NCBI GenBank assembly: GCA_036141575.1
Contig: JAYZXF010000017.1
Span: forward strand, 78,077-142,076
Direction of reading: 5' to 3'
Origin: Pseudomonadota bacterium
GTDB lineage: Bacteria; Pseudomonadota; Alphaproteobacteria; UBA2136; JAPKEQ01
Length of the DNA: 64,000 bases
Part shown: piece by piece, positions 2,878 through 58,601 of the stretch
How positions within the stretch are numbered: the first letter of the stretch is position 1
How the letters are laid out: every line of letters starts with the position of its first letter
The notes under the pieces: model-generated
What the model was told of the DNA's origin: nothing
Database searches by the model: none
The model's input: only the letters and a program-made list of their open reading frames with translations
Translations under genes and position numbers: made by a program

Positions 2878-2927
2878 GGTGGGCCTCATAAGTTGGAGAA
2901 AAAGAAAAACAGATATTGAATAAAGCC

Positions 2928-2956
2928 ACCCTACGAGTGGAAAATGTATACGTCAA
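2928..2956 (-). promoter_or_regulatory. shared promoter-like motif TTGACGTATAC-N-TAGGGT
   Basis: On the minus strand: TTGACG (2951-2956), 17-nt spacer, TAGGGT (2928-2933). Upstream of 2500-2877. Confidence 0.45.
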
Positions 2957-2963
2957 ATGAAAA

Positions 2964-2985
2964 GCAGCCCTTGAAAAAGGGCTGC
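2964..2985 (-). terminator. rho-independent terminator
   Basis: GCAGCCCTT-gaaa-AAGGGCTGC, A/T-flanked. Confidence 0.75.
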
Positions 2986-2999
2986 TTCGAAAAATCGAT

Positions 3000-3419
3000 T
3001 TATTTGCCTCCAGGGTTCAGCAGACCAGTCAGAAAGTTTTCAAAAATTTTCTGTTGTTGGGCCACATAGGCCTGAGCCAGCATGCCGGCCATCACAGACA
3101 TGTTCTTCAGCTGCTGCAGTTGTGCAGAACCGAGGCCATTGGCTTTGACGGTTTTTTCGAAGTCTTCAGCGAACTCGTTCACAGCGGCTTTGGCTTCTTC
3201 AAACATTTCCAGTGGCGAACGCGGACCTTGCGCCAGAGCTTTCATCAGCTCAAGGAAGTCAACATCGTCACGCTTCAGATACTCTTCCAGCAGAGCAATC
3301 AGCTCTTCTGAGGTGGTATTGGCGGCTTCAAATTCGCCTTCGCTACCATGTTCCGTCATGCGGCGGGTTGTCTCTTGAATAGCTTCCAAAAGCTCTTCAT
3401 TTGTGCGGGTATCAGTCAT
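3000..3419 (-). CDS. hypothetical acidic helical protein (139 aa)
   Basis: ATG at 3419 preceded by GGAG. Terminator 2964-2985 directly downstream. Confidence 0.6.
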   Translation of the reverse strand: MTDTRTNEELLEAIQETTRRMTEHGSEGEFEAANTTSEELIALLEEYLKRDDVDFLELMKALAQGPRSPLEMFEEAKAAVNEFAEDFEKTVKANGLGSAQLQQLKNMSVMAGMLAQAYVAQQQKIFENFLTGLLNPGGK

Positions 3420-3449
3420 CAAACTCTCCAGTCAATGGGGTGAGGGAAA

Positions 3450-3474
3450 CAGGCTCTTACTTGTTAAGAGCCTG
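3450..3474 (-). terminator. rho-independent terminator
   Basis: CAGGCTCTTA-cttgt-TAAGAGCCTG. Confidence 0.7.
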
Positions 3475-3481
3475 AACAGAT

Positions 3482-3883
3482 TTAGCCAATGCCGTTGGCT
3501 TCCAGGAAGGCGTCGTAGTATTTGGCGCGCTCTTCAAACAGGGCTTTGGTCAAAATCACAAGCAGCTGCATGGTGCTATTAACCACCTGCAGTTCAGCTT
3601 CGCCAGCTTCGCCTCTGGCCTGCAGTTTTGCTTTTTCTTCTGCATATTCTGGCAGGAGGTATTCCAGCTGTTGCAGAACCTCAAAAGCTTCACCACTGAA
3701 AACGGTTTGTGCAAGGTTCGAGACGGTGGTATTGGGCAGAGCTACATACTCCTGACAAAGTGCAACCAAATTGGCCAGAGGCTCAATTGCGCCAGCATCA
3801 TCGTCGCGTTCTGCAGCAGCCATCATATTGGAGGCTTCCACTTGAATTTTTGCCATCAGCAGTTCAGGGGATTGTTCAGACAT
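3482..3883 (-). CDS. hypothetical acidic helical protein (133 aa)
   Basis: ATG at 3883 preceded by GGAG (spacing about 7). Terminator 3450-3474 downstream. Confidence 0.6.
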   Translation of the reverse strand: MSEQSPELLMAKIQVEASNMMAAAERDDDAGAIEPLANLVALCQEYVALPNTTVSNLAQTVFSGEAFEVLQQLEYLLPEYAEEKAKLQARGEAGEAELQVVNSTMQLLVILTKALFEERAKYYDAFLEANGIG

Positions 3884-3921
3884 AAGAATCTCCATTGTCT
3901 AAAAAAAGGGAAGGGTGATAG

Positions 3922-3950
3922 ATCAAAATCACCCCTGTTGTATACGCCAA
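3922..3950 (-). promoter_or_regulatory. related promoter-like motif TTGGCGTATAC
   Basis: On the minus strand: TTGGCGTATAC (-35 at 3945-3950), 17-nt spacer, TTTGAT (3922-3927). Upstream of 3482-3883. Confidence 0.3.
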
Positions 3951-4029
3951 GGTGTTGCATTGTCAAACTTAAATGGGAAATGAAAAACAAAAAAGCTCCC
4001 CAAATTGGGAAGCTTTGCTTTCGAGTGAT

Positions 4030-4263
4030 TTAGAAGGACTGGCCAATGGCTTTGGAAAGCGTGATGGTGTTTTCAGTCTGCTGCTGGATGAGTGCTGCAG
4101 CCAGCTTGGCTGGTGGCGTTGGTGCAAAGTTCACCATCAGGGCACTGCATTGACGCATAGGCGTAAAAACAAGTTGTTCTTGCGCTTGCCGTGTTACGTT
4201 GGCGTAAGCCTGCGTGTAAGTATGCATGGCTTGAAGAGTACCCAAAGGCGTAAATAGAGTCAT
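4030..4263 (-). CDS. hypothetical small protein (77 aa)
   Basis: ATG with 'gagagg' upstream. Hairpin 3994-4014 right after the stop. Preferred over the overlapping ORFs 3973-4257(+) and 4073-4462(-). Confidence 0.45.
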   Translation of the reverse strand: MTLFTPLGTLQAMHTYTQAYANVTRQAQEQLVFTPMRQCSALMVNFAPTPPAKLAAALIQQQTENTITLSKAIGQSF

Positions 4264-4380
4264 AGAACCTCTCTGTAAAACGGTATGGTGGGTTGTTAGG
4301 AGCGCAGAAAGTAGGGGAAAGCAGGAGATCTGTCAATATATAAAAACAGCCCCCTTGCGAGAGCTGTCTTTGATTTCGAT

Positions 4381-4953
4381 TTAACCGAGGCCTTGGCCTT
4401 CTTCTGGCCAGAGGCGTGCACTGGCGCGGTCGCAGTTGCCAACATGGGCTGCAAGCGGGCAAGAGACACGGTGGGTGTTGGTGTAATCATCACCTTCACC
4501 ATGGGTATATTTCAACGCGTTCCACTCATTATCAGTCAGTTCAAAATCATAAGTTTTCATGAGCTCAAGAATGATACGCTTCTTAATGAATTCCCAATAT
4601 TTTGGAACAACATGTTGAAGCTCTGTATGCCAGTGTGCCACGCGCGGATCAGTAGGGTCTGCAAATTTGAAGATCTTCTCAATGTCATGGAAGAAAAACG
4701 TAACCGCAGCACTGCCTTTGGTAAAAGGCAGTGGACGAATCTGTTCCATGCCGTCATAGGTCACATCGTTAATGCGAAGGCCTTCTGCAATATGGTCTGC
4801 ATAGCCGCCAGGCCAAGCTTGGTGGTTATGGGTAGAGCCTGGAGCAGTATGGAAGAGGTCGTGGAAATCACGGTAAATTTGCAAGAGGACATTCTGGCGC
4901 GGATCATTGATCTGCTGAATGAGCCCTTTAAGCTTTGTGTCTAACAGAGACAT
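4381..4953 (-). CDS. HD-domain phosphohydrolase-like protein
   Basis: 'GGYADHIAEGL' followed by 'FFFHDIEKIFK', the H...HD metal-binding pattern of the HD superfamily. AAGGAG lies 6 nt before the ATG at 4953. Confidence 0.65.
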   Translation of the reverse strand: MSLLDTKLKGLIQQINDPRQNVLLQIYRDFHDLFHTAPGSTHNHQAWPGGYADHIAEGLRINDVTYDGMEQIRPLPFTKGSAAVTFFFHDIEKIFKFADPTDPRVAHWHTELQHVVPKYWEFIKKRIILELMKTYDFELTDNEWNALKYTHGEGDDYTNTHRVSCPLAAHVGNCDRASARLWPEEGQGLG

Positions 4954-5034
4954 AAGCATCTCCTTGTATAAAACGTGTTCAAAGATTGAAGAGTTCTTTT
5001 TTTATATCGTGGCTTTAAACATGTGGCAATGAAA

Positions 5035-5058
5035 AAGCCCCTTTATAGGAAGGGGCTT
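5035..5058 (-). terminator. rho-independent terminator
   Basis: AAGCCCCTT-tatagg-AAGGGGCTT. Confidence 0.75.
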
Positions 5059-5107
5059 TATCTCGATTTAGCAGTACTGCGTATGGTCTCCTAAGGTAAG
5101 GGTGGGG

Positions 5108-5461
5108 TTAGCCGCGGGCCAGCTCAAGGAACGTGCGCATGGCTTCTGCCAGCGGGTTCAAACCAATCAGAGCACCAGGGTTCTCAGTTTTGGTTCTTTC
5201 AATCAGATCCTCAAGGCCTTTCAGGCCTTTTTCGCCGGTTGCCAAGGCATGTGCTGGCATACCAATCATAGTGGCAATCTCTTCAGCGCTCACTTCACCG
5301 CGGACAATCATGTTTTTCACTTCGGAAAACAGGCCAAGGGCGGCTTCTGCAGTTGCAGTGAGCATAGCAAGATTATCGGCTTTGAGTGCTTTACTGGCTT
5401 CACGTACAGCCATTTGGGCTGCACCAAGAAAGTTTTCAGCTTTAGCAAGATTCATATTCAT
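5108..5461 (-). CDS. hypothetical helical protein (117 aa)
   Basis: ATG at 5461 with GGAG upstream. Promoter-like TTGACG-17-TAGGGT at 5516-5544. Terminator 5035-5058. Confidence 0.6.
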   Translation of the reverse strand: MNMNLAKAENFLGAAQMAVREASKALKADNLAMLTATAEAALGLFSEVKNMIVRGEVSAEEIATMIGMPAHALATGEKGLKGLEDLIERTKTENPGALIGLNPLAEAMRTFLELARG

Positions 5462-5636: not shown

Positions 5637-5951
5637 TTAGTTCATTTCCAGTGGAATTTTCACAAGGAAGCTCTGACCGTATGTTTTCTTCTTCGGATCA
5701 AATCCGCTGAGTTTAACGTACGAGTACGGGAAGCGACGGCTGCAAGCATCAACCTGCGTCATCACCCAGCTCGCGCTGACTTCTTTGTGCTCTGGAATTG
5801 GCCAGATTTTCCAGTACACCTCTTCAGGTGTTGGTGCATCTGAGAACTCAATCATTGGCACTTGGCCTTCTGCAAGCATGTTTTGTGCTTGCATGTGCAC
5901 TTGGTTACTCGTCAGAGGCGGTAGGAATGAAAATGTTTCAAAACGTCTCAT
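5637..5951 (-). CDS. RuBisCO small-subunit-like protein (RbcS/CbbS family)
   Basis: 'RRFETFSFLPPL', 'YWKIWPIP', 'YVKLSGFD' and 'SFLV' match hallmark small-subunit motifs. Lies 15 nt downstream of the RbcL-like gene. Terminator 5577-5603. Confidence 0.85.
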   Translation of the reverse strand: MRRFETFSFLPPLTSNQVHMQAQNMLAEGQVPMIEFSDAPTPEEVYWKIWPIPEHKEVSASWVMTQVDACSRRFPYSYVKLSGFDPKKKTYGQSFLVKIPLEMN

Positions 5952-5966
5952 TGTTTTTATCCTTTC

Positions 5967-7670
5967 TTAGTCATCCAAACCTGGACGAGTGTCATCAGTT
6001 ACGGGTTTCAGTGGGGTTACAACTTTTGGCGCTGTTGTTGTTTCTTCAATCTTAGCACCTGTTGCTGCGTCACCTTTCACAACACCAAACAGGAAGGCTC
6101 CTTCGTTCCAGAATTCTAGAGCGGCTTTCAGTTCGCTGTTGTAGCGGGCTGCACGTTGTAGAATTGTACGACCGTCAACACTTAGGTTATGACCTTCACC
6201 ACGGGCTTGTGCAATGGCTTCAATCGCCGTACGGCAAGCTGTTGCACCGCTGCCTAGGCCCCAAGGGTGACCCATTACTGATCCACCACACTGGATGATC
6301 ATGTCATCGCCCATTGCGTCCATCAGGCGAGGGAAGTGCCATGGGTTGTGTCCACCACCCACAGCAGGCCATACAGTGGCACCACCTACAGAGGGTTGGT
6401 CAAACATGATACCTGTTTCAACAGATGTTTTTGGTGCATCTTCAACAAGCATATCAACAATACCTTTCACGTGACGGCGGTTACCCGTATCACCACGCAG
6501 TGGACTACCGATACTTACCATGTCACAACCTGTGAAGCGAAGAAGCTTCGCAATCAGGCCTTCTGTCATTGTTGCGCTCATGAGGCTACGTCCGCCCATG
6601 GCACCAATAATCACATCGTTGTTCTGACACCAGTTCACCATGCTTGCAAGAGCACTCCAGCCGACAGCAGAGCTATCAACAATCATCATGTTGATGCCAA
6701 GCTCTTTTGCATATTCTGCACGAGCTGTCATATCTTCAACTGTTGGGGCACTAATGTTCACAGCGTGGTATTTCACTTCGCCCGTTTCTTGCTGTGCAGC
6801 AAAGGCAGCTTCAGCCACAAAACGGAAGCGACGGCGCCAGCTATTGTCTGGCAGGCTGTGCATCATGGTTGGGTCGGCAGTCATATCTACACCGCCTTTA
6901 AGTGTTTCGTACACCGCACGGCCGTACATCTTAGGTGATAGGCCGTTCATTGGGCGCATTGTGCTACTTAGCAGTGGGCGACCGTACTTGCTGGCAAGGT
7001 CACGCATACCAATCACACCGTATGAAGGTGTTTTAAATGTACGTGCAAGCCCAACAGGAATGCGGGCATCAACAATACGTGCACCTGTAGATGTAATAGG
7101 GGCACTGATCACGCTAATAAGGCTGACCATAGAGCCTGCTTCTACCATTTCTTGTGGGATGATCAGGCTTACGTTAACTGTAGAGCTATCTACGCGCTTT
7201 GTTTCAAGCAGTTTTACTTGTGGCACTGTCTCGTGGTCTACAAGAGAACCTGTCCAGCTTTCCACCCAGTCACCGTTTGCTGCGCTTACAAGAAGGTTAC
7301 CGCATTCGTTTTGGCTGAATGTTGTGTTCTCGTACTGGTAGCTAACAAGGATGTCTTGTTCTGGGTTAAAGCCTTGGTCTTCCTTACGGCGACCACGTGA
7401 GTCTGGCTTTTCATCAGTCGTTGGGGCTGCTACGGCTGCAAATGATGTCGTGCCGCCTGTTAGGCTGTCTAGCGATACACCAAGAACCGTGGCGATTTTA
7501 ACCACGTTATCTAGAGAAGGGCTTACTTGTCCGCCAAGGATGCGTGAGAGCGTTGCCATCGACACACCAGACTGGCGAGACAGGTCAGATGCAGACATGC
7601 CGTTCTTTTCCAAAATCTTTTTTAGAGCCTCAGGTAGGTTGTAAGGGCTCTCTGTTGTTTTCTTTGTCAT
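5967..7670 (-). CDS. XRE-family HTH fused to a RuBisCO large-subunit-like (non-catalytic) domain
   Basis: N-terminal Cro/C1 HTH ('MSASDLSRQSGVSMATLSRILGG'), then collinearity with Form I RbcL ('KYGRPLL', 'YGRAVYETLKGG', 'CGGSVMGHPWG'). Catalytic motifs are replaced, e.g. DFTKDDE becomes DMTADPT at 6867-6896. The ATG at 7670 has 'aaggaaa' upstream. Confidence 0.85.
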   Translation of the reverse strand: MTKKTTESPYNLPEALKKILEKNGMSASDLSRQSGVSMATLSRILGGQVSPSLDNVVKIATVLGVSLDSLTGGTTSFAAVAAPTTDEKPDSRGRRKEDQGFNPEQDILVSYQYENTTFSQNECGNLLVSAANGDWVESWTGSLVDHETVPQVKLLETKRVDSSTVNVSLIIPQEMVEAGSMVSLISVISAPITSTGARIVDARIPVGLARTFKTPSYGVIGMRDLASKYGRPLLSSTMRPMNGLSPKMYGRAVYETLKGGVDMTADPTMMHSLPDNSWRRRFRFVAEAAFAAQQETGEVKYHAVNISAPTVEDMTARAEYAKELGINMMIVDSSAVGWSALASMVNWCQNNDVIIGAMGGRSLMSATMTEGLIAKLLRFTGCDMVSIGSPLRGDTGNRRHVKGIVDMLVEDAPKTSVETGIMFDQPSVGGATVWPAVGGGHNPWHFPRLMDAMGDDMIIQCGGSVMGHPWGLGSGATACRTAIEAIAQARGEGHNLSVDGRTILQRAARYNSELKAALEFWNEGAFLFGVVKGDAATGAKIEETTTAPKVVTPLKPVTDDTRPGLDD

Positions 7671-7840
7671 TAAATTTTCCTTATATGGTAGCGAGCTACC
7701 ATTACGGTTATTCATTTACCTATTAAATGTAGTATCGCACAGGCTGTGCTTTTGCACAAATGGAAATATTGCAGATGTGGAAGAATTTCAAGGGCTGAAA
7801 TCAAAAAAATATCAAAAAAATAAAGGTGACTTTGTTTTTG

Positions 7841-8769: not shown

Positions 8770-9582
8770 ATGAGACACACAGTATGGATTGCGTCGTTGG
8801 CGCTTTTGTGTGCAGTAAATGCGCAAGCTTCAGAAGGAATTGCAAGGCAAATTCAGTCTCTTAAAACAGCAATGGATGGGTTTGCAGCAACTGCAAGAGC
8901 GCAAATTGCGTCCAATACAGCGAGTATTACTGAAAACGTAAGAATTATTGACTCTTTTGAGACCTGTGCTGAAAGCGGGATGATGTATGCCCCTGATGAT
9001 GTGACAGCGAATGCAGATGGCTGTAAGCGCGTCACCTCAACACAAGCGCTCAATGAAATTGATGTGTCAAGCCAGCTTGTGGCAACAGGCCGGTGGCTAC
9101 ACCCTTATAACTTTAGTGAGCATTCATCAAATGGGTCTCCATCAAAACGTGGCCGTTCTTATGCGCAGATTTATCGTATTAATGATCCTGATAATTATAA
9201 CAACTACCTGATTTCTGGTAATCTTTTTGGTGGTGGTAGTCGTTCTCATGATGAGGGTCAGTTCAGTTGTTGGAATGCTAATACTTATGTAAAGATTGGT
9301 AGTGGTTGGGTTTCTACAAACGGTGATTCTATTAAAATTGAACAGCTTGCCAATGTGTCTAAAACGCGTGTGGCAGGCCATGTTTATAATGGCACATTCC
9401 AAAACCAAATTGCGATTGTAAAGCGTACATCTCATAGCTGTTATAATAACGGAGGGGATTTAAATATGGGAATGAAGGTTAATTACATTACGTATCACAA
9501 TGGTATGAATGCACGTGCATCTTATCATGATAGTGACTCGCGAGCTTCAACACTGCGTGTGACAAACATTATTGGTTTTTAA
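8770..9582 (+). CDS. secreted coiled-coil protein, 'EGxxRQxxSLK' family (F1)
   Basis: Signal peptide ...AVNAQA, then 'SEGIARQIQSLKTAMDGF', a Cys loop 'CAESGMMYAP...DGC', and a C-terminal domain paralogous to 12170-13015. Confidence 0.75.
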   Translation: MRHTVWIASLALLCAVNAQASEGIARQIQSLKTAMDGFAATARAQIASNTASITENVRIIDSFETCAESGMMYAPDDVTANADGCKRVTSTQALNEIDVSSQLVATGRWLHPYNFSEHSSNGSPSKRGRSYAQIYRINDPDNYNNYLISGNLFGGGSRSHDEGQFSCWNANTYVKIGSGWVSTNGDSIKIEQLANVSKTRVAGHVYNGTFQNQIAIVKRTSHSCYNNGGDLNMGMKVNYITYHNGMNARASYHDSDSRASTLRVTNIIGF

Positions 9583-10206: not shown

Positions 10207-10223
10207 AGGATTTATCTAAAAAA

Positions 10224-10245
10224 AAGCCACCCCGAAGGGTGGCTT
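10224..10245. terminator. bidirectional terminator
   Basis: AAGCCACCC-cgaa-GGGTGGCTT with A-run and T-run flanks. Confidence 0.8.
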
Positions 10246-10275
10246 TCTTTATTTACGTCGATTTGCTTTGGCGTT

Positions 10276-12169: not shown

Positions 12170-13015
12170 ATGCTTAAAGTATCAGCATTAACTGCTGTGT
12201 GTGTGATTGGAATCGTGAATTATGTGCAAGCGAGTGAAGGAATTGCTCGTCAAGTACAAGCCTTAAAGTCCTCTATGGATAGTTTTGCTGCGACTGCTCG
12301 TGCTCAGCTTGCTGCTCAGGCGGTAAGCATTACAGAGAATGTACGTATGATTGACGCTTTTAAAACCTGTGCAGATAAAAACATGCTGTATACGCCTGAA
12401 AATCAGGCGGCAGATGTGGATGGCTGTTCTGCGATGTCTGGCTCTGGGGAAGTAAATGAAATTGATATGGCAACAGAGGTTGTGCCAACAAACCAATATT
12501 TTAATGTGGAACATGGCAGGGAGCAAACTGGAGGCGGTGGAGTAACTCGTGGCTCTCCTGCACGTATCTATCAGATTAATGACTCTGGAAATTATCAAAC
12601 ATATCAAGTTGTCGGTAATATCCGAGGCTGGGGTTGGCAATGGGATGATGAAGATCATGCTTATGACCATTGTTATGCTTATCAGCCTTATGTGAAAATT
12701 GGCGGGAGATGGCATGTCTCTGACTCTGATACTGTGACAATCCGTACTGTTGCAAACCAAAATAAAACCATTCTAAATGGCCGTATGGTGAATGGAAGTT
12801 TTGATAAAAGAATAGCTGTTGCTAAAGGAACAGCTTTCAGATGTGGTCGTCGTGGGGATACAAATGCTTTATATCAGATTTTTAATGATATGCGTAAGAG
12901 CCATGTGACTTGGTCTGATGCTTTAGCTTCTGGTCAAAGGGCTTGTTCTCATCATGACCCTCTTAATTGCAGAAATAGTGCATCGCTTGGTATACACTAT
13001 ATTGTTGGCTATTAA
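12170..13015 (+). CDS. secreted coiled-coil protein, 'EGxxRQxxSLK' family (F2)
   Basis: ATG at 12170 with GAGG upstream (the ORF track starts at GTG 12161). Signal peptide, 'SEGIARQVQALKSSMDSF', Cys loop 'CADKNMLYTP...DGC'. Full-length paralog of 8770-9582. Confidence 0.75.
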   Translation: MLKVSALTAVCVIGIVNYVQASEGIARQVQALKSSMDSFAATARAQLAAQAVSITENVRMIDAFKTCADKNMLYTPENQAADVDGCSAMSGSGEVNEIDMATEVVPTNQYFNVEHGREQTGGGGVTRGSPARIYQINDSGNYQTYQVVGNIRGWGWQWDDEDHAYDHCYAYQPYVKIGGRWHVSDSDTVTIRTVANQNKTILNGRMVNGSFDKRIAVAKGTAFRCGRRGDTNALYQIFNDMRKSHVTWSDALASGQRACSHHDPLNCRNSASLGIHYIVGY

Positions 13016-13114: not shown

Positions 13115-14146
13115 ATGCGCTATACAGTTCCTGCTGGGCGCAATGAAGCGCCCTATGCCCTATGGCATGAAAAAAGCATACAGGCGCGAAGCTGGTATTT
13201 AGCTTTAGGTATGATGTATCCCGTGATTATATGTATTGCCCTTGGGCTGCATGGCGGGGTAGGAACCTTTATGAGTGCCATTTTCTACGCAGTCTTGCTT
13301 TTTGGTGTTTCTCGCTTTCAAGCCTATAAAACGGTGCGCTCAGCACCTGAAGAATTTGCGCGTAAGGCTATTCCTGAAACCTCACCTCAATATCGTCAGG
13401 CTCTCCTTATGATTGAGGAGCTTTGCCAGCGTGCAGGTGTGGATTGGAGGCCTCAGCTTATTGTGTTTGAAAGTGAAGGCTTTGACGGTTTTGCAAGCCA
13501 TCCCCCTGGACGGGACCCCTATATTATCCTGAGTACAGGTGCTTTTCTTTATGGGAAGAGAAGTGTACGTGCTGTGATCGCTCATGAGCTGTCTCATATG
13601 CTGCACGGGGATATGACCCTTGTTGAGAGGGCAACCATCCTGCATATGGTGACAATGGCTATGCTTGCTCTTATTTTGTCTGTTCCAATGGCTATGGCTG
13701 GTGGAGAGTCTGCTGACAGTGTTTTCTTTCTTGTGTTTTTATTGGGGTTTACCTTCATCTATTTACGTGGATTGAAGATTGCGCTCAATACGCACTCACG
13801 CTACCGAGAGTATTTGGCTGATGGTGGTGCTGCCGCTTTAATTGGCTGGGAAAACCGTATGGATATGGCGGTTGCACTGCACTGGACTTTTGTTGCCTTT
13901 AAAGAGCTTCTGAAAAAGAAGGTGAGGCAAGGGCAGCTCTACAAAGATTTCCGTCACCCTCAAACTGGGGCACCCCCTAGAGAAGGATGGCTTGAAGACA
14001 TGCAACAAAAAGCGCTGGATGCGATTGATGAAATGGAGGAAACCTCTTCCATTATGAATACGCACCCAACCAATAAAGAGCGCTATGCTGCGCTCGATAT
14101 TACCGAAGACGAGCTGAAGCAAGCTCTTGAGGATCATGCGCTATAA
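13115..14146 (+). CDS. M48-family (HtpX-like) zinc metalloprotease, membrane
   Basis: HExxH motif 'AHELSHMLHGD' flanked by TM helices. Terminator 14156-14177. Confidence 0.7.
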   Translation: MRYTVPAGRNEAPYALWHEKSIQARSWYLALGMMYPVIICIALGLHGGVGTFMSAIFYAVLLFGVSRFQAYKTVRSAPEEFARKAIPETSPQYRQALLMIEELCQRAGVDWRPQLIVFESEGFDGFASHPPGRDPYIILSTGAFLYGKRSVRAVIAHELSHMLHGDMTLVERATILHMVTMAMLALILSVPMAMAGGESADSVFFLVFLLGFTFIYLRGLKIALNTHSRYREYLADGGAAALIGWENRMDMAVALHWTFVAFKELLKKKVRQGQLYKDFRHPQTGAPPREGWLEDMQQKALDAIDEMEETSSIMNTHPTNKERYAALDITEDELKQALEDHAL

Positions 14147-17580: not shown

Positions 17581-17676
17581 GGAGAGGCTCCAGAGAAAAA
17601 GAAAATCAAAGATATGAGTTGCCTTATTTTTACAAGGAGTAGAGAGGCTTGGCAAGGTGTTTCCTGCAAAACAAAA

Positions 17677-17692
17677 CAGCCCCGAAGGGCTG
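17677..17692 (-). terminator. rho-independent terminator
   Basis: CAGCCC-cgaa-GGGCTG. T-run on the minus strand. Confidence 0.7.
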
Positions 17693-17703
17693 TTTAGGTT
17701 CGT

Positions 17704-18276
17704 TTATTGGTCCCAGTAGACCCGCTGGTGCGGTTCTTGGCTCCAATAGTCTTCAAATGTGCCACCTGTATGGAGCAGGCCACGTTTGACGAGCTGCTGA
17801 ATGCCTTGTATCTCTGTGGGAGAAAGCTGGCTTTCGCGACGGCGAGGGGAACCTTCCTCTACCTCATAAAACCAGTGATAAATGCCCGTTTCCGGCTGAA
17901 AAATGAGAGCGCTTGCTTCACGGTGCTGAATGGCACGCAGAAGAGGAATCACGTTCTGTTCTTCTTTGCTGAAGGCGCGAGGGGTCACAAATGGTTCAGG
18001 GTTTGCGTGGATATAGTTCCCCAAAATAACCTGAAAAAGGGGCAGGCCTTCTACGTAACGGCCTTTTGTTGAGAGGGTTGTGAGTGCGTTACAAGCAAAG
18101 GCTTCGCACAGCACTTGCCAGTCTCGCAGGCTAATAGCAGGCAGTTTGGATTCACCAAGATGACCCTGCTTTTTAGGCTGGTTGATGTAAACGCCATGTG
18201 AGACTGTGATGAAGAATTGAACATCCATCTCATGGATGCGCTTCACCATTTCAGCAACCGCTTGAGATTGAGACAT
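17704..18276 (-). CDS. hypothetical protein, 'WQxLC' paralog family (B)
   Basis: ATG at 18276 (MSQSQAVAEM...). Motif 'RDWQVLCEAF'. Own terminator 17677-17692. Confidence 0.6.
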   Translation of the reverse strand: MSQSQAVAEMVKRIHEMDVQFFITVSHGVYINQPKKQGHLGESKLPAISLRDWQVLCEAFACNALTTLSTKGRYVEGLPLFQVILGNYIHANPEPFVTPRAFSKEEQNVIPLLRAIQHREASALIFQPETGIYHWFYEVEEGSPRRRESQLSPTEIQGIQQLVKRGLLHTGGTFEDYWSQEPHQRVYWDQ

Positions 18277-18364
18277 GTGAGATCCTTTCAGAAAAGGGAG
18301 GGAGATGTAAGATGTTGGGATTGTATTCAGTTTGGTGGTGTTATGCAAGTACACAAATGAAAAA

Positions 18365-18380
18365 CAGCCCCGAAGGGCTG
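18365..18380 (-). terminator. rho-independent terminator
   Basis: The identical CAGCCC-cgaa-GGGCTG hairpin. T-run on the minus strand. Confidence 0.7.
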
Positions 18381-18392
18381 GTAATAATCGCT

Positions 18393-19121
18393 TCAATCAT
18401 CTGCCGTCCAGAACGAAAAGATGCTCTGAGCTTCGAGGTGATAGTAAGGGGTCTTTTCACCAAGGGTGACAACGCCTTTATCAATCAGGCTTTGTAGAAT
18501 GACCATTTCATTCTCATCAAAGTCAAGCTCAACGCCCCAGTCGCCTGCAAACCAAACACCATGGTAGGGTTTGTTGTCTCTCCATTTATGGATCAGGCAG
18601 CAGGCATTCATATGCTCTGATGTAGAGTAAGCGTCATGGTCTTCCATGAGGTGAGAGGTGTCTTCGCCTGCATCCTCTGCGGCGTAGTACTCCTTAATGC
18701 ACCCCCGCTTAACATGCTGACCAGCAGGGAAGTGCCGTACGCGCGGGCCTGCGCCTGTCATGGCTTTAAGGAGCATGATCTCATCATTGCTGAGAGCTGT
18801 TGGCGAGGCTGGAGGCGGCGTTTCGGGCCTGTCGAGCGCGGACGCCTCAAGAATTTGATAGAATGTGGCGCCTTGCTCTTTCATGAGGCTAAGCTTCCAG
18901 TTACTATTTAAATGGGCGCGACCATCAGAGATGATTTTGCAGAGAAACTGCCACTCTTCAAGTGTAACGGGGAGTAGGTCGTCTTCATTGACGGGCACAT
19001 TTTCTTGGGTGTTCTGTGCAGCAAGTTTATATGCTCTTGTGTCTGACACAAAGTAGTAGCACAGCTGTTTTTCAATGCTGGCAACAATGTACTCTTCAAG
19101 GGCGATGCCTGAAAGTTTCAT
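18393..19121 (-). CDS. hypothetical protein, 'WQxLC' paralog family (C)
   Basis: Motif 'EEWQFLCKII'. Own terminator 18365-18380. Confidence 0.6.
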   Translation of the reverse strand: MKLSGIALEEYIVASIEKQLCYYFVSDTRAYKLAAQNTQENVPVNEDDLLPVTLEEWQFLCKIISDGRAHLNSNWKLSLMKEQGATFYQILEASALDRPETPPPASPTALSNDEIMLLKAMTGAGPRVRHFPAGQHVKRGCIKEYYAAEDAGEDTSHLMEDHDAYSTSEHMNACCLIHKWRDNKPYHGVWFAGDWGVELDFDENEMVILQSLIDKGVVTLGEKTPYYHLEAQSIFSFWTADD

Positions 19122-20031: not shown

Positions 20032-20129
20032 CATATATAAAAATCATCTTTTACACGCTTCATTGCTTATGTATTGGTCCATACATGGCGCTCTTTATCC
20101 TGCAAAAATTGCTTTTTTATATATGCTAG
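20028..20129. repeat. perfect 16-bp inverted repeat pair
   Basis: CTAGCATATATAAAAA (20028-20043) and TTTTTATATATGCTAG (20114-20129), 70 nt apart. The left arm contains the TAG stop of 19258-20031. Confidence 0.8.
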
Positions 20130-20140
20130 AAATATATTAA

Positions 20141-20345
20141 AAGAAGTCTTCGTGGTGCTTCATAAACGAGTGCGTAGTGAAGCGGAGCCAAAACCTTAAG
20201 AGGTTTTGAGCGGTTTAAAGCATTTAAAAATAAGGCGGAGCATTATTTTTGAAAGTAAGGGGTTTAAACCAAGACCATGCTTTGCGAGTTATCGCCTTTT
20301 TGGAGCAGCGTAGCGAATGAAAAAAGCGAGAACATGAAGCAAAGA
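20141..20345. repeat. structured intergenic repeat family, copy A
   Basis: Roughly 80% identical by eye to B 58370-58545 over about 180 nt. Hairpin 20188-20208. Confidence 0.75.
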
Positions 20346-24902: not shown

Positions 24903-24910
24903 ATCGAGAA

Positions 24911-24934
24911 AAGCCCCTTTTGTGTAAGGGGCTT
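24911..24934 (+). terminator. rho-independent terminator
   Basis: AAGCCCCTT-ttgtgt-AAGGGGCTT followed by TTTG. Confidence 0.8.
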
Positions 24935-25015
24935 TTTGTTTGACGTTACATGAGTGGCTCGCTATGTTGAAATCAATTCTGATCTCTTATCTTTTGTTTT
25001 CAAGGAGTTTTTCTG

Positions 25016-26485: not shown

Positions 26486-26818
26486 ATGCTACTCACAACA
26501 ACACCTTATGTTGAAGGTTACACCATTCGCCGTTACGGCCCAATGGTAGCCAGTGAAGCGGTCATGGGTACCAACCTGTTTAAGGATTACTTTGCAAAAG
26601 TACGTGATATTGTTGGTGGACGCTCTGGTGCGTTCCAAAATGCTCTTGCAGATGCGCGTGAATCTATTCTTCATGAAATCCAAGTGCAGGCTCAGCAATC
26701 TGAGTGTAACGCCATTATCGGTATTGATATTGACTACGGTGAGGTATCAGGTGGTGATAAGACAATGCTTCTTGTTGCTGCAACAGGTACAGCGGTTTAC
26801 ATTGAGCCGATTACTTAG
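26486..26818 (+). CDS. ybjQ: YbjQ/UPF0145 family protein
   Basis: 'TTTPYVEGYTI...VVGGRSGAF...NAIIGIDIDY...LLVAATGTAV' follows the UPF0145 pattern. Confidence 0.8.
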   Translation: MLLTTTPYVEGYTIRRYGPMVASEAVMGTNLFKDYFAKVRDIVGGRSGAFQNALADARESILHEIQVQAQQSECNAIIGIDIDYGEVSGGDKTMLLVAATGTAVYIEPIT

Positions 26819-26827
26819 TTTTTTGTA

Positions 26828-27100
26828 GCTTGCTTCCTGTCTTTTATTTTTCAAATATAAAATTTGTAAAATAAAATTCAACGCAAGCTAGAGTCTTGGT
26901 TTAAAACCTTCCTTGTAAAAACAGTACTCCGTCCTGCTTTTAGCTTTTTTAAACCGCCCAAAACGCCTGAACGTTTTGGTTCGGCTACTCGCCTCACACT
27001 CTCATAGGCCAACACTTCTATTGTGTCCTAGTACTTTGCGGAGCAAAGCGCAGCCGGCGCTTAAGGGCGCCGAGCGCAAAGGTACAAAGTAGGGTAAGCT
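26828..27100. repeat. structured intergenic repeat family, copy C
   Basis: Hairpin 26842-26876. Segment 26958-27040 is the reverse complement of B 58331-58409. Hairpin CCAAAACG/CGTTTTGG at 26958-26979. Confidence 0.75.
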
Positions 27101-27295
27101 GCAGAGCAGCCGTGCCTTTGCAAGATATAAATAAGGTGTTAAATGGCAGGCAGTGTGTCTGTGCGCAGGGCACCGCCTCAACCTGACAGGCCGAGAGTCA
27201 AGAAAGGAAAAAATAACCAAAACAGCTCTTGTCACTTAGGCAGATACACGTTAGTTTATTCCACATTCAAAAGTTTCAAAAATAAGGGATAAGTC

Positions 27296-32240: not shown

Positions 32241-32256
32241 AGAGATACAAAAGAAA

Positions 32257-32280
32257 AAGCCCCTGCAATAGCGGGGGCTT
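32257..32280. terminator. terminator after pntB
   Basis: AAGCCCCTGC-aata-GCGGGGGCTT. Confidence 0.75.
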
Positions 32281-32703
32281 TTATCGATCTTCAATGATCC
32301 AGAAAAATTTAGCAATTTCTGGAATCGGTTGGCCAAGGAGGCGTCTTTCAATGATGTGATCTGGCGCGTGCCCACTTATTCCAAAGAAATGGCAGGCGTC
32401 AAAATAGCCCATAAATCTAAGAATAAGAAGATGCCCAACAAACAAAAAGAAAGAGGGGACAATAAAAACCATAAGGAGTGCTTCACTATACCCAACAAGG
32501 AGGCTAGAAAAAATAAGCATCACCAGCAAAACACCTTCACCATAGGTTTTATATTTGCGAACTTCGAGGCCTTTTCGAATGGTCTTTTTATATTCAGGGA
32601 TTTTATCCCACATAAGGATTGCTCCTGAGACTTGGAAAAGGAAAACATATTTGAATGACTCGAGTGTAGGGGAGATAGGCTGGAATGAAAAGGGGAAAAG
32701 CAA
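32281..32703 (-). CDS. possible membrane protein (up to 140 aa)
   Basis: AT-rich ORF with two or three hydrophobic segments. Start is unclear. The antisense ORF 32329-32628 competes with it. Confidence 0.35.
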   Translation of the reverse strand: MLFPFSFQPISPTLESFKYVFLFQVSGAILMWDKIPEYKKTIRKGLEVRKYKTYGEGVLLVMLIFSSLLVGYSEALLMVFIVPSFFLFVGHLLILRFMGYFDACHFFGISGHAPDHIIERRLLGQPIPEIAKFFWIIEDR

Positions 32704-33751: not shown

Positions 33752-33873
33752 GAGTTATCCTTTCAGGATGAAAACGGTGAACAGAATAGGTCGTATGCAA
33801 TATATGGTTCTTAAAATCTTTGTTTTCAAGCCTATAAAAGCAAAACACCCCCGAAGGGGTGGCTTGCTCGCTT

Positions 33874-34158
33874 TTATAGCCAGTTTGGAAGACCAAACTT
33901 ACGGAACAAAATTGCAAGATTTTCATTCCCTTTAAGGCCATACTCTTGGCAAGCTTCTTTAAAAAAGATGCTGCGGAGTTTCCAGTGGAAGAAAGCGAGT
34001 TGCGCAGCGATGCATAGCAGGATGGTCAGTGTTGCGGTAAGGCTCAACAGACCGAAGTAATTGCCAGCCACCATCATGGCACTCAGCGCAGAGCTGAACA
34101 TAAACTGCATAATTTTCAACTCAATTCCTTGTTGGATGGAGCTTTCAGTAATTGTCAT
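33874..34158 (-). CDS. small 2-TM protein, paralog family (P4)
   Basis: ATG at 34158 with GAGG 6 nt upstream. 'IQQGI' and tail 'EACQEYGLKGNENLAIL'. Confidence 0.55.
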   Translation of the reverse strand: MTITESSIQQGIELKIMQFMFSSALSAMMVAGNYFGLLSLTATLTILLCIAAQLAFFHWKLRSIFFKEACQEYGLKGNENLAILFRKFGLPNWL

Positions 34159-38656: not shown

Positions 38657-38724
38657 ACGGCGCCTTTAAGCGAAGTTTTATGGTATCTGTCTCGTGTTGT
38701 GATAATAAACTCTGCGCTCAGATT

Positions 38725-38890
38725 TTTCTTTGCTTGCTTTCCATCTTTTATTTTTCAAACATAAAGTCCAATGCAAGCTCTTGGAAAGCGTGAAGCATTC
38801 AACAGCATGGGCATTTTCAAGATAACCTTCACGGGGGCTATCATTTTACAAATTTTACATTTGAAAAATGATAGGGTGAGAGTGAAGAAG
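38725..38890. repeat. structured intergenic repeat family, copy D
   Basis: The left part resembles the left of copy C ('gcttgctttccatcttttatttttcaaacataaa'). Hairpin 38827-38887 is the reverse complement of the B hairpin, with different complementary outer stems. Confidence 0.7.
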
Positions 38891-38895
38891 AATAA

Positions 38896-41268: not shown

Positions 41269-42108
41269 ATGAGGTTATTTGCAATTGTATGTATGTGTTG
41301 CGCACTGTTTGTCAGTGTGGCAGCCGTTTCTCAAACACGTGCAGGTGAAGGACTTTCACGCCAACTTCAATCTGTAAAATCAATGCTTGAGAGTTTCCGT
41401 AGCCATATAGATGGTGAAATCGCTCGTGTGGATAGTGAAATTAATACAGTGGATAGCAGAGTAGATGCTGCAAATACTAGAATGGATACCATGGACGGTC
41501 GTATGGATGGTATAGACACTCAGATTGGTGGCCTAAACTCGAGTATTAATTCACACGATAACCGTATTACAGCCCTAGAAAATGGGGAAACAGGTGTGCA
41601 AGTTTACAGAAACTGTGCACAACGTAATGTGACATGGGGCAGTGGAAATTGCCGAGGTACGCAGGGGCCCATTCCTCATGGCACAAGTATAACGGTTAGA
41701 GACACCGTTCAAGGTGATATTTGTACAAATAGATATCAATATGTTGGCTATGCTGTGTATAGTTGTAATGATGGTGTGGTAACGCGTAACGGGCAAGCTT
41801 GTCAGCGAACAGATTTCTACAATGAAAATCTATGTGAATCTGGCAGTGGTGGCGATAGCTATGCAAACTGTCAAGGTACAACAAGGACATGGTCAGAAAC
41901 GTATAATGGTCTAACTTCAACCTGTTCTGGATCAATTGGTTCTGTGCCACATGGTACAACCGCTACAGCAACAGACCCTAGAACTGGTTGTGACCGTCGA
42001 GACTTCACAGGTGGATCATCGACTTGGCTATGTGATAATGGTACTCTCAGAAGACAAGGTACTGCAACATGTAGAACCTGGGGCAGCTGGGGTAGCGACT
42101 GTCGATAA
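41269..42108 (+). CDS. secreted coiled-coil family member with 2 x 4-Cys modules (F3)
   Basis: Signal peptide, 'GEGLSRQLQSVKSMLESF', an Lpp-like repeat 'VDSEINTVDSRVDAANTRMDTMDGRMD', and Cys modules at 41614-41802 and 41869-42072. Ends in 'DCR'. Confidence 0.75.
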   Translation: MRLFAIVCMCCALFVSVAAVSQTRAGEGLSRQLQSVKSMLESFRSHIDGEIARVDSEINTVDSRVDAANTRMDTMDGRMDGIDTQIGGLNSSINSHDNRITALENGETGVQVYRNCAQRNVTWGSGNCRGTQGPIPHGTSITVRDTVQGDICTNRYQYVGYAVYSCNDGVVTRNGQACQRTDFYNENLCESGSGGDSYANCQGTTRTWSETYNGLTSTCSGSIGSVPHGTTATATDPRTGCDRRDFTGGSSTWLCDNGTLRRQGTATCRTWGSWGSDCR

Positions 42109-42288: not shown

Positions 42289-43374
42289 ATGAGAGCTTTT
42301 CCGATAGTAATGATTTTATCCTGTTTAGTTTTACTAACAGGCGTAGCTGGTGCGCAGAGCACGCGCTCTGGTGAAGGTATTGCAAGGCAGTTAATGTCTG
42401 TTAAAAGTATGATTGAAAATTTTGCTGATAACATCCGCACACGTGTGCAGACCGTTGAAAATGAAATGGATGCGGTAGAAACACGTATGGATACAGTGGA
42501 AGCTGATGTTGCAAGCGTACTTGCAACCGTTGCAACACATGAAACACGGTTGAGCTCGCATGATTCATCTCTATCTGGCCATGGTCGCCGTATTCGAGCA
42601 CTCGAAGAGCGCGAGCCAACAGGTGGTGGAGGTAGTACAGCACCAACACCAAGTGCGTGTAACGGTAGAAACATGTCATGGGGAGGGGGATGTAGTGCTT
42701 ATGTACAATCTCTACCTGATGGGGGTGCTGTCGTTCTGAGAGATCAAGTTGCTGGTGATGTATGTACAAATAGACAGCAGTATGTTGGTCAAGTTCGTGT
42801 GGCTTGTAACAATGGTCAAATTTCTACAAAGAACGCCTCTTGTGAGCTGAGAAACGTTTATAACGCAACTCAGTGTAGTGGTGGCACAACACCAACACCG
42901 AAGAAGAGATGTGCAGCAAAAGATGTGAGCTGGAAGAACAATGCTGGTACAGTCACATGTCGTGGTAGAATTGTTGCAGCTGATCATGATTCAACACGTC
43001 GTGTAACATTTGATAACAACAATACAAAACCTGGTGGAAAACGTATTACTGGTGCAGCAAACTTTATTTGTGACAACGGTGTGTTCAAACGTACATCTAA
43101 GAACTGTAAAGAAACTGTTAACCCTGAGCCTCCTAAGCCTTGTGCAGGCAAGTCTGTGAGTTGGACTAGTAATGGTGTTACATGTCGAGGAACTGTTTCG
43201 AATACGCCACATGGTTTAACTTCAAGTGTAACAGACCCTAACCGAACACGAGAGTGTGAGAACATTATAGATACAACAGGTAGCGCAAGCTTCAGGTGTA
43301 CAAATGGATCGTTCAAGAAGGTCTCTGGCTCTTGCAGGCAGGTACGGAGTCGTCGAACAGGTGACTGTCGATAA
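42289..43374 (+). CDS. secreted coiled-coil family member with 3 x 4-Cys modules (F4)
   Basis: Signal peptide, 'GEGIARQLMSVKSMIENF', a coiled coil, and three Cys modules between 42658 and 43335. Ends in 'DCR'. Confidence 0.75.
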   Translation: MRAFPIVMILSCLVLLTGVAGAQSTRSGEGIARQLMSVKSMIENFADNIRTRVQTVENEMDAVETRMDTVEADVASVLATVATHETRLSSHDSSLSGHGRRIRALEEREPTGGGGSTAPTPSACNGRNMSWGGGCSAYVQSLPDGGAVVLRDQVAGDVCTNRQQYVGQVRVACNNGQISTKNASCELRNVYNATQCSGGTTPTPKKRCAAKDVSWKNNAGTVTCRGRIVAADHDSTRRVTFDNNNTKPGGKRITGAANFICDNGVFKRTSKNCKETVNPEPPKPCAGKSVSWTSNGVTCRGTVSNTPHGLTSSVTDPNRTRECENIIDTTGSASFRCTNGSFKKVSGSCRQVRSRRTGDCR

Positions 43375-44104: not shown

Positions 44105-45106
44105 TTATTGAGGTTCACCATTATGCTCTTTAGAGAGTGGGTATTTTCCTTTTTTGTCTGGAATAGAGCCGTGGACAAGAATACCGTTTGCATAGTAAGT
44201 GTGGTCACCATCTAGCATAAGGTTGTAGAGGCGGCGGTCTTCTTCTTCCTGTGGGACAATCATGATGGATTCAATAAGCTGACGCTTGCCTTGTGCCATA
44301 ATGAGTGTTTGGCCAATTTCAAGCTGACCAATGTTACCAGAAAGTTGGTCGTAAGCTTCTTTCTCAGCCATATCTGGGTTAAGGGCCTTCCAGCCGTCTG
44401 TTGTCATAAGAGGGTGGTTATCTGTTGTAAAGGCAGTTTCACCGTTAATCTCAATAAGGTGCTGGTTTTTACCTTTGCGCAGAAGAGGGCGGTCAAGGTC
44501 TAGCACGGTGTTAATTGCACCGTCACGGCCCATCAGCTTATCACCAATTTTAACTTTATGAATTTCAAGGTCACTACCATCCGCCATAAGTACTTTTGTT
44601 TCAGCCGTAAAGCATGAGCCGCGGCAAACTGCTGCACAATTTTCCATACTATTAGGCGTTAGGTTTGTATTACAGCGGCAGGCACATCTCCACCCCACCC
44701 AAACTTGGTCGCTTGGGCATGTAGGAGGCGTGTAGGTGCCACCACCTGTTGGGCCTTCAATATCTGTATGTGTTACACAGTTATTGCTATCAGCATCTGG
44801 ATGGTTTGGCCAATACAGGCTTGTTGTTGATCTGTTATGGCAGAACGTTTGCCTATTAATAACTGTCTGGAGGTCTGAAATATCCGTTTGTGCTGTTGAG
44901 AGCTGTGTTTCTAGAGTGCTAATTCTAGAGCTCATGCCAGTAGACATGCTTTCCATCATGTTTTTAAGGGAGAGAACTTGCCTTGAAAGTGCTTCACCCG
45001 CACTTGTTTGTGCCCATACATTGGCAGCTAAAATGATTGTGCAAAGAGAGAGAAAGATTGCAATGGATTTAAGTATTTTACCCTTGAAAAACATAGTGGC
45101 CACCAT
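44105..45106 (-). CDS. secreted coiled-coil family member with C-terminal Hint/BIL domain (F6)
   Basis: 'AGEALSRQVLSLKNMMESM', loop 'CHNRSTTSLYWPNHPDADSNNC', then Hint blocks 'CFTAETKVLMADG', 'TTDNHPLMT' and 'HTYYANGILVHGS'. The start is at 45106 or 45094. Confidence 0.75.
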   Translation of the reverse strand: MVATMFFKGKILKSIAIFLSLCTIILAANVWAQTSAGEALSRQVLSLKNMMESMSTGMSSRISTLETQLSTAQTDISDLQTVINRQTFCHNRSTTSLYWPNHPDADSNNCVTHTDIEGPTGGGTYTPPTCPSDQVWVGWRCACRCNTNLTPNSMENCAAVCRGSCFTAETKVLMADGSDLEIHKVKIGDKLMGRDGAINTVLDLDRPLLRKGKNQHLIEINGETAFTTDNHPLMTTDGWKALNPDMAEKEAYDQLSGNIGQLEIGQTLIMAQGKRQLIESIMIVPQEEEDRRLYNLMLDGDHTYYANGILVHGSIPDKKGKYPLSKEHNGEPQ

Positions 45107-52951: not shown

Positions 52952-53016
52952 ACAACTGACAGGCGGAAACATTAATAAAACCGCTTATAAGAACTTAAGG
53001 AAAGTAAAACATTAAC

Positions 53017-57305: not shown

Positions 57306-57329
57306 AAAGCCACCCCGAAGGGTGGCTTT
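57306..57329. terminator. bidirectional terminator after tpsA
   Basis: AAAGCCACCC-cgaa-GGGTGGCTTT. Confidence 0.8.
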
Positions 57330-57342
57330 CTTTTTATATCGC

Positions 57343-58062: not shown

Positions 58063-58159
58063 AGCGGCCTCCTGTGTCTAAAGTGAAGTTAAAGATAGTT
58101 CTAGTGAATAAATTATGGTGATGGTGAGGTGTTTATTCAAGATGTGTTGTTTTTTTACT

Positions 58160-58545: not shown

Positions 58546-58601
58546 GAGAAAAAGAGAGTCTAGGAAGCGCCAAGGTGCAGGCTTGATCTCCAACATATAA
58601 A

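Follow-up and report, generated by a model that had tools for sequence, protein, structure and literature searches.

Several families of short palindromic repeats have been described from the intergenic regions of bacteria. Miniature transposable elements with inverted repeats, known as MITEs, reach lengths of up to ~400 bp, carry terminal inverted repeats (TIRs), and fold into long stem-loops (PMC3184786). The ERIC/IRU elements (127 bp) of Enterobacteriaceae and Vibrio are intergenic imperfect palindromes that lie in either orientation at strain-variable loci, have longer variants carrying internal insertions, and show TA flanks (PMC3184786). Likewise, the Correia elements (CREE) of Neisseria and the RUP elements of Streptococcus pneumoniae are non-autonomous, intergenic, and bounded by TIRs; they display presence/absence variation among close strains and, on co-transcription, yield strong RNA hairpins (PMC3184786). 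The REP/BIME/REPIN repeats, which RAYT transposases mobilize, are palindromic singlets or inverted doublets that form intergenic mosaic clusters and show a hairpin dependence at the DNA level (PMC3184786, PMC3733652). Finally, the ~155-bp bcr1 repeats of the Bacillus cereus group are intergenic, strain-variable, and gene-free, with compensatory changes that keep a double-stranded cruciform-like structure (PMC3184786). The element considered here, copy C, lies in a 64,000-nt stretch (hereafter the window) of an uncultured alphaproteobacterium (assembly GCA_036141575.1, contig JAYZXF010000017.1, positions 78,077 to 142,076). It belongs to a dispersed intergenic family with four loci in the 64-kb window (copies A, B, C, and D) and at least eight more in related strains.

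We read copy C as belonging to a family of palindromic repeats that is MITE-like, non-autonomous, and lineage-restricted, and assign this reading a probability of roughly 60%. The modular anatomy, the covariation of the stems, the two-fold symmetry, the absence of a gene, and the turnover between strains are direct observations. The window copies were found by blast and repeat finding, and the four have modules in common. Relatives were gathered as contigs encoding exactly the same flanking proteins; these represent several closely related lineages, each read over ~100 kb, and their contigs are designated below by L numbers. The flanks of the window copies are ordinary chromosomal genes, namely a DUF6776 gene and bactofilin, ybjQ and a gene for an 82-aa protein, an Hsp70-like gene, and a DEAD-box helicase gene. 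Side-by-side comparison of the copies defines a repeat unit of ~170-230 nt that reads core, hairpin h, GAGCGG, S2, CCAAGAC, S3, and tail. The core measures ~50 nt, and h has a stem of 7-9 bp with a loop near TTMAGR. S2 and S3 are both nested. In S2, the outer stem measures 8-10 bp, and the hairpin inside it measures 7-8 bp and has a loop near RACGGAGYA; in S3, the outer stem measures 6-8 bp, and the inner hairpin, which is AT-rich or GC-mixed, measures 10-14 bp. A purine-rich tail (AAGCAAAGA.AAAA) forms the terminus of the unit. A covariance model of h plus S2 (R1), built from 12 units, matches five units in the window and ~12 independent units overall.

Copy C (26819-~27214, no strand) is a full element consisting of two such units placed head to head; it takes up the interval from the ybjQ stop codon (26816-26818) to the conserved region upstream of the gene for the 82-aa protein. 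The initial annotation had described it as an inverted copy of B with compensatory changes in two hairpins. The inverted relationship stands: the minus strand of 26958-27040 corresponds to B 58331-58409, with 66 of 84 alignment columns identical, and blast extends the inverted match to C 26882-27056 and B 58310-58486 (76.5% over 179 nt, E ~3e-32). The notion of two hairpins of one copy gives way to the two-unit arrangement, in that by R1 the first of them is h of the right unit of C, while the second is h of the left unit, on the opposite strand. The right unit (26891-26982, minus strand; R1 93.4 bits, E = 2e-20) runs in the order h (26958-26979), GGGCGG, S2, and CCAAGAC, the last appearing on the plus strand as GTCTTGG (26893-26899). 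Its h reads CCAAAACG-CCTGAA-CGTTTTGG, and the equivalent hairpin in B (58389-58410) and A (20188-20209) reads CCAAAACC-TTAAGA-GGTTTTG; the closing pair is thus C-G in A and B and G-C in C, which confirms the swap reported earlier. The S2 of this unit has the outer stem GGTTTAAAA/TTTTAAACC and the inner stem AAAAGCAG/CTGTTTTT with the loop GACGGAGUA. Its S3 (26826-26890, minus strand) is closed by the outer stem TAGCTTGC (26826-26833)/GCAAGCTA (26883-26890), within which lies an inner AT-rich hairpin (26842-26876, minus strand).

Between the two units of C lies the central core (26983-27050, minus strand), which is common to B and to L018A, a doublet in a related strain, as GTACTAGGA...GGCCT.ATAGAGTGTGAGGCGA.TAGCCGA; in alignments with these two elements the core sequence itself is conserved. 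The left unit (27051-27128, plus strand; R1 21.3 bits, E = 7.6e-5 with filters off) comprises h (27054-27072), AGCG, S2, and CAAGAT. This h, CCGGCGC-TTAAGG-GCGCCG, is the second self-complementary block noted previously, and it does sit at the position of the GCCGTAGCG/CGCTACGGC hairpin of B (58290-58313), which is likewise the h of the B left unit. The stem CTTTGCG (27034-27040)/CGCAAAG (27075-27081) that had been proposed to flank this block is not the best pairing. Its CGCAAAG falls within GCAAAGGTAC (27076-27085), and this segment forms the outer stem of S2 (plus strand) together with GTGCCTTTGC (27112-27121). Beyond it, a distal G+C-rich part ends in an A-rich tail (GAGAGTCAAGAAAGGAAAAAA; 27129-27214, plus strand), the final bases of which mirror the T-rich left end of C at 26819-26845; we infer that this segment is the S3 equivalent of the left unit.

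The remaining members show the same modules in other combinations. Copy A (20100-20345, plus strand) is a single unit with core, h, S2, S3, and tail, and its R1 match spans 20185-20277 (plus strand, 95.8 bits). Copy B (58149-58550, no strand) is a full element. Its left unit, on the minus strand, has its R1 match at 58222-58315 (69.5 bits), h GCCGTAGCG/CGCTACGGC at 58290-58313, and S3 at 58152-58221; its right unit, on the plus strand, has its R1 match at 58386-58477 (95.3 bits), followed by S3 and the tail at 58478-58550. Copy D (38723-38895, no strand) consists of two inverted S3/tail modules around a short center, is 98.8% identical in L031, and is a deletion derivative that keeps only the two S3/tail ends. 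Among the relatives, L018 carries at the A site a two-unit element unlike A (L018A, 3845-4250) and elsewhere a miniature unit (12300-12353). L023 has a copy within the pnt operon (4353-4690), L024 has a unit at the ybjQ site (4955-5109), and L039 has a unit at 1-115. Four elements are found in L036 (E1, 2900-3290; E2, 4126-4402; E3, 5860-6085; E4, 13321-13511) and two in L037 (E5, 3389-3619; E6, 4414-4790). Single units (A, E3, and L024) coexist with doublets joined head to head with their tails outward (B, C, L018A, E1, E6, and L023). A doublet is a two-fold symmetric element of ~400 bp in which the tails and S3 modules serve as TIRs, and element sizes span 170 to 410 bp. D and B each carry the T-rich end plus S3 in inverted orientation at their two ends, and C does so more weakly.

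As a structural observation, the compensatory changes of the hairpins are real and well supported, and their scope is much larger than the two copies originally compared. In an alignment of 12 units from the window and the related strains, made with MAFFT and not fitted to any structure, pairing holds in 88.5% of the cells of the three h and S2 helices, 19 of 27 pairs are altered on both sides, and the covariation score is 0.371, so that conservation of structure under changing stem sequence extends far beyond the single pair first noticed. None of 500 shuffled controls reached any of five measures for these helices, and sliding one partner by 1-3 columns lowered the pairing to 29-56%. RNAalifold independently recovers the h and S2 helices, with compensatory changes in 18 of 24 pairs. 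Stems often give way to entirely different sequences from copy to copy, with the pairing kept. By copy, the h stems read CCAAAACC/GGTTTTGG, CCAAAACG/CGTTTTGG, CCAAAACA/TGTTTTG, CAAAAGCC/GGCTTTTG, CGCAGGC/GCCTGCG, TCGCAGACC/GGGCTGCGA, and CCGTAGCG/CGCTACGG. The outer stem of S2 occurs as TTTAAAGC, CATAAAGC, or TGCACAAG and the inner stem as AAAAATAA, AAAAGCAG, or CTGCCCA, each with its matching partner. S3 conforms to the same pattern: its outer helix is paired in 72 of 72 cells across the 12 units despite appearing in the versions GCTTGC, GCTCGC, GCTTAC, CTTCAC, and CTTTGC; four of its six pairs are altered on both sides, and the S3 helices together exceed 500 of 500 shuffles in cells paired and in covariation score. 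Individual sequences behave accordingly, with whole elements folding better than dinucleotide shuffles on both strands and copy C reaching z-scores of -6.1 (minus strand) and -3.7 (plus strand). The consensus fold is therefore better than that of shuffled controls, the comparison on which the earlier proposal had been staked.

That proposal had further implied a functional RNA on one strand, to be identified by comparing the consensus folds of the two strands. Although the fold itself is supported, the comparison favors neither strand: the consensus fold has the same helices on both, with energies of -20.2 kcal/mol for the unit's own strand versus -22.8 for its complement, and no strand can be assigned because these folds are equivalent. 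The counts of G-U against A-C pairs in the minimum-energy folds, 31 versus 23 (p = 0.34), do not differ. The minimum free energy is lower on the unit's own strand, which is purine-rich, in all 11 units, yet z-scores favor that strand in only five of eight elements. The 17 differences between copy C of the window and its 96%-identical ortholog in L018 keep seven of 12 pairs on one strand and seven of 14 on the other. The loops point instead to symmetry at the level of DNA. The left-arm h loops (TTCAGA, TTAAGG, TTAAGG, TTAAGA, and TTTAAGG) fit the right-arm consensus only when read on the opposite strand, and on that same opposite strand the L018A left arm carries the consensus S2 loop GACGGAGTA. 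Since the h and S2 loop motifs are mirrored between the arms, the doublets are two-fold symmetric at the DNA level, a symmetry for which one transcript has no need, and the functional RNA from one strand implied earlier has no support. Single units, moreover, are found in either orientation, A and L039 lying along the flanking genes and L024 and E3 against them.

Turnover between strains is seen at locus after locus: elements have been gained, lost, truncated, and rearranged while divergence of the neighboring genes stays at a few percent. Where C, B, E3, and the L023 copy differ by presence or absence, the flanking genes are ~95% or more identical. Copy C is present in the window and in L018, L021, and L027 (96-100% identity), whereas L019, L020, and L025 have at this site a 146-bp intergenic region with a terminator-like hairpin between T runs and no element. 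The L023 lineage has a 346-bp copy between two pnt genes that are spaced by 2-5 bp elsewhere, with a possible 8-bp duplication, GAAACTAT, on both sides, for which the boundaries were set afterwards in AT-rich DNA. L036 and L040 carry E3, L037 does not, and the L039 unit occupies the same site in the opposite orientation. The intergenic region at the B site spans 583 bp in the window but 314 bp in L036, which retains only a remnant of the left arm (E4). The A site is occupied by a single unit in the window and by a doublet unlike it in L018, and has no element in L019. Three short-read contigs (L028, L030, and L046) terminate inside copy B. Furthermore, when the orthologous elements E6 and E2 are compared, the h loop proves to be exactly flipped (GCC-CTGA-GGC versus GCC-TCAG-GGC) and S2 to be deleted between GCTTT repeats, both changes being typical of DNA palindromes.

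Many short copies devoid of a transposase gene, inverted ends, and insertion polymorphism are MITE features that the family shows. Under the MITE-like reading, a transposase whose gene lies at another place in the genome would move the elements in trans, or would have done so until recently. The stems would stay paired because the ends must fold, either as single-stranded DNA during movement or as co-transcribed RNA, and palindrome-templated repair would probably assist by copying a change in one arm of a stem into its partner arm. After insertion, an element in either orientation would provide neighboring transcripts with strong hairpins, and at the ybjQ site it would stand in for the ordinary terminator. 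Several observations weigh against this reading. The two arms of one element are often of different sequence subtypes, which is unusual for a simple MITE, and common DDE transposases do not need covariation within an arm. Neither a transposase gene nor an autonomous element with matching ends was seen in the ~100 kb read per lineage. As to a target-site duplication, C, L023, and E2 have TA on both flanks, but their boundaries were chosen afterwards in AT-rich DNA, and at the ybjQ and E3 sites an occupied allele is related to an empty one by replacement rather than by clean insertion. Finally, the family is known from only ~12 independent units in one group of closely related uncultured strains.

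The alternative that survives best, even if we regard it as unlikely on balance, is that the copies are cis-acting RNA elements, i.e., co-transcribed hairpins selected for termination or for protecting mRNAs from RNases or exposing them, with their spread being secondary. For this there is precedent in REP, ERIC, and Correia (PMC3184786). The strong covariation of the stems would follow naturally, as would the positions of several units directly against stop codons (that of ybjQ at 26818, that of the gene at 38896, and one at L018 3846), and the L023 copy, being inside an operon, must be transcribed. At the ybjQ site, C even takes the place of the terminator-like hairpin of the sister strain. 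Against this, single units run both with and against transcription, and the strands are equal in consensus fold and show no G-U bias; the mirroring of loop motifs would be needless for a single transcript. A T run follows only the hairpin of the B left arm, and terminator scans of C and A found none.

We are more doubtful that the unit, beyond being decaying debris of a transposon, serves an undescribed mobility or RNA-guided system as its recognition scaffold, in which case selection would keep the helices of the ~170-nt three-module fold and a dedicated protein would read its conserved loops and linkers, either as single-stranded DNA ends or as an RNA produced from each arm.

Similarly improbable, and by a little the more so, is the reading that the unit encodes, or descends from, a structured noncoding RNA, whether one working with a mobile-element protein, like the omega RNA of TnpB/IscB or the bridge RNA of IS110, or a member of a small-RNA family. 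Three covarying helices, conserved loops (TTMAGR and RACGGAGYA), and conserved linkers (GAGCGG and CCAAGAC) would make a plausible scaffold, and the inner S2 loop nearly always has GGA or GGAG on the unit's own strand, the strand on which the minimum free energy is lower in 11 of 11 units. This energy bias tracks the purine-rich composition of that strand, however, and neither the z-scores (five of eight elements) nor the consensus fold, slightly better on the complement, bears it out. The whole window gave no match in Rfam 15 at gathering thresholds. Lax scans of C and B returned scattered weak matches to unrelated families, none at its gathering score and with the families linked to IS605, IscB, and IS110 included in the search; the lowest lax E-values, 0.002-0.004, are those of a terminator past the right end of B. 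No transposase, tnpB, iscB, or IS110-type gene appears in the Pfam annotation of the sampled loci, and among the called genes there is no Y1 transposase (RAYT) family. That no promoter or terminator is common to the units also tells against an RNA gene, and no tRNA or tmRNA was found.

Least probable of all as an account of the whole is that the paired changes are a mutational by-product, with template switching or repair in palindromes copying changes between arms during neutral decay: the E6/E2 loop inversion, the deletion between short direct repeats, and the equal support for structure on both strands would suit it, but whole stems replaced by unrelated sequences yet perfectly paired, with loops and linkers kept, are hard to obtain by single templated events unless pairing is selected for, wobble-preserving single changes rather than templated doubles are among the 17 differences that separate the C copies of the window and L018, and the process would account for kept pairing and not for the existence of the family, which makes it a complement to the MITE-like explanation. 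Palindromes are known to provoke loop inversions and direct-repeat deletions through quasi-palindrome mutagenesis.

Several candidate identities were set aside on inspection. A likeness to domain V of group II introns (GAGCCGTA...) is confined to one copy and accompanied by no Rfam intron. The attC sites of integrons are imperfect palindromes that combine the inverse core RYYYAAC with the core GTTRRRY and mark cassette boundaries near an integrase; here, CCAAAAC does not fit RYYYAAC, other stems are quite different, and the elements lie among housekeeping genes with no cassette array. An assignment to REP/REPIN was rejected in that h is preceded by GAG or GAC, has a variable stem (CCAAAAC, CGCAGGC, CCGTAGCG, and others), and is part of a far longer unit. 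Sequence searches beyond the group were likewise negative. Copy B has no match in 5,426 complete E. coli genomes (blastn, word size 11, E <= 1e-3), which means that it is unlike ERIC, BIME, and other E. coli repeats, and none in 72,556 plasmids. The pattern GCGGTTT-N35-60-TTTAAACCAAGAC, run against the GTDB representatives (which do not include the organism), gave 17 uninspected matches in unrelated phyla, about the number expected by chance by our estimate. A pattern for h plus S2 had 0 matches in JGI metagenomes and viral contigs. A second pattern found two JGI metagenome contigs (L048 1403-1484 and L049 3966-4047) that hold the S2 flanks GCGGTTTAAAGC...GCTTTAAACCAAG; these were rejected as family members, since both are an ordinary gene-end terminator lacking h and the inner hairpin, although two matches are slightly above the estimated chance number. 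In the literature, the assembly and run accessions of the lineages are not mentioned; the only mention found concerns the marine biofilm sample that is the source of the L023 lineage.

As to coding capacity, the 77-aa open reading frame (ORF) at 27002-27235 on the minus strand, which spans the left unit and core of copy C, is spurious, as the initial annotation had suspected. It has no Pfam match, its 96%-identical L018 ortholog differs from it by seven non-synonymous and three synonymous changes, and its segment is missing in strains that lack copy C, such as the sister lineage L019. More generally, ORFs within the repeat copies are short, are not conserved from copy to copy, and match no Pfam family, and a search of the protein collection with an alignment of the translated antisense frame, aimed at ORFs called inside further copies, found no match. 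A 42-aa gene called in the public contigs wholly within E3 (L036 5946-6074 and L040 371-499), on the strand opposite to the unit (MLAPYLSFWKSEISQNKIQRKLASWFKAHLFKNNTPFYFYML), is a spurious call of the same kind.

Some further features of the repeats deserve mention in their own right. Past the right end of the window, E1, E2, and E3 are clustered within 3 kb of L036 (2900-6085) among four small ORFs (138, 90, 113, and 102 aa) whose function is not known, adjoining a gene for a 954-aa protein with weak phage-tail-like matches. The 138-aa ORF lies between the inverted E1 and E2, whose tails point outward, in a layout resembling that of a composite element; it was considered as a transposase and rejected, having no Pfam match. 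The S2 stem of the B left unit (58229-58256) begins GGTGCGCAAGT TTTTAA GTATTTTAGGT, which we take to be loosely like the E. coli dif site (GGTGCGCATAA TGTATA TTATGTTAAAT); the other units do not share it, and the likeness is probably a coincidence. The ybjQ stop codon is TAG in the window (26816-26818), where the element follows, and TAA in L019 (10331-10333), which has no element. Several unit tails abut TAG stops, and TAG ends 13 of the 69 genes of the window. The idea that units insert at or create TAG stops was discarded, because the empty E3 site, and likewise the A site where it lacks a unit tail, also has TAG; the association may be due to chance.

The remainder of the window contains features distinct from the repeats. 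Hairpins of a shared form, such as AAAGCCACCCCGAAGGGTGGCTTT and AAAACAGCCCCGAAGGGCTGTTT, recur at gene ends (10223-10255, 57306-57338, 17673-17705, 18361-18393, 33842-33875, 5028-5059, 24904-24935, and 32250-32281); with their CCCCGAAGGGG-type tops, they look like ordinary bidirectional terminators that fall outside the repeat family. Seven to nine tandem 48-nt repeats (58935-59511) occur within the 3' portion of the gene for the DEAD-box helicase (minus strand, 58646-60676) and encode a repeated C-terminal tail. Two pairs of paralogous genes of unknown function have stretches that are 70-85% identical (8770-9582 and 12170-13015; 41269-42108 and 42289-43374). Genes for the small and large subunits of RuBisCO are present at 5637-7715 (seen via L044 14819-16852), and therefore the organism may fix CO2; the 567-aa large-subunit product also has helix-turn-helix Pfam matches, which is odd as a fusion or as an annotation. 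A gene for a HINT-domain (Hom_end_hint) protein and a two-partner secretion pair, consisting of a ShlB-type transporter and a 1,424-aa TPS-domain protein, are encoded at 44105-45106 and 50852-57291, and such accessory genes are typical of surface-associated bacteria.

The family is previously undescribed, although comparable repeats of other bacteria are known to combine kept pairing with changing sequence. We take the compensatory changes of the window to mark a hairpin-rich mobile repeat family and, as such, to be no evidence for a new regulatory RNA gene. The family reshapes the intergenic regions of an uncultured marine bacterium known only from metagenome-type assemblies, with practical consequences for annotation (the 77-aa ORF and the 42-aa call are spurious), for assembly (contigs break in the repeat), and for strain comparison (intergenic alleles differ by whole elements). 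It is also a clean natural case of several helices kept paired among copies within one genome, and could serve to tell selection on structure apart from palindrome-templated repair.

Compared with the described systems, the family differs from each in a characteristic way. REP units measure 20-40 bp, have a GTAG or CGTC head, and conserve the stem sequence within a genome; in contrast, the present units are 170-230 nt long, comprise three hairpin modules with stems that vary, and lack a GTAG head; within a doublet, one arm is not complementary to the other, and the sampled loci have no RAYT-like gene. The Correia and RUP elements have a TA target duplication, near-identical copies, and 26-bp terminal repeats, and RUP is matched by an IS630-type element. 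Our family, by comparison, has no known partner insertion sequence, and its copies are far more diverged, with differences that are compensatory. ERIC, which has no sequence similarity to it, is a single long hairpin of well-conserved sequence, whereas here the stems differ completely among copies of one genome and each arm folds on itself. Even bcr1 comes from another phylum, has no sequence relation to the family, and consists of a single ~155-bp unit with 5-bp terminal direct repeats, as opposed to three hairpin modules per unit, the occurrence of both singlets and ~400-bp doublets, and no clear flanking duplication. Nevertheless, in behavior bcr1 is the closest analog, for it too is an interspersed intergenic repeat that varies between strains and whose stems have undergone compensatory changes.

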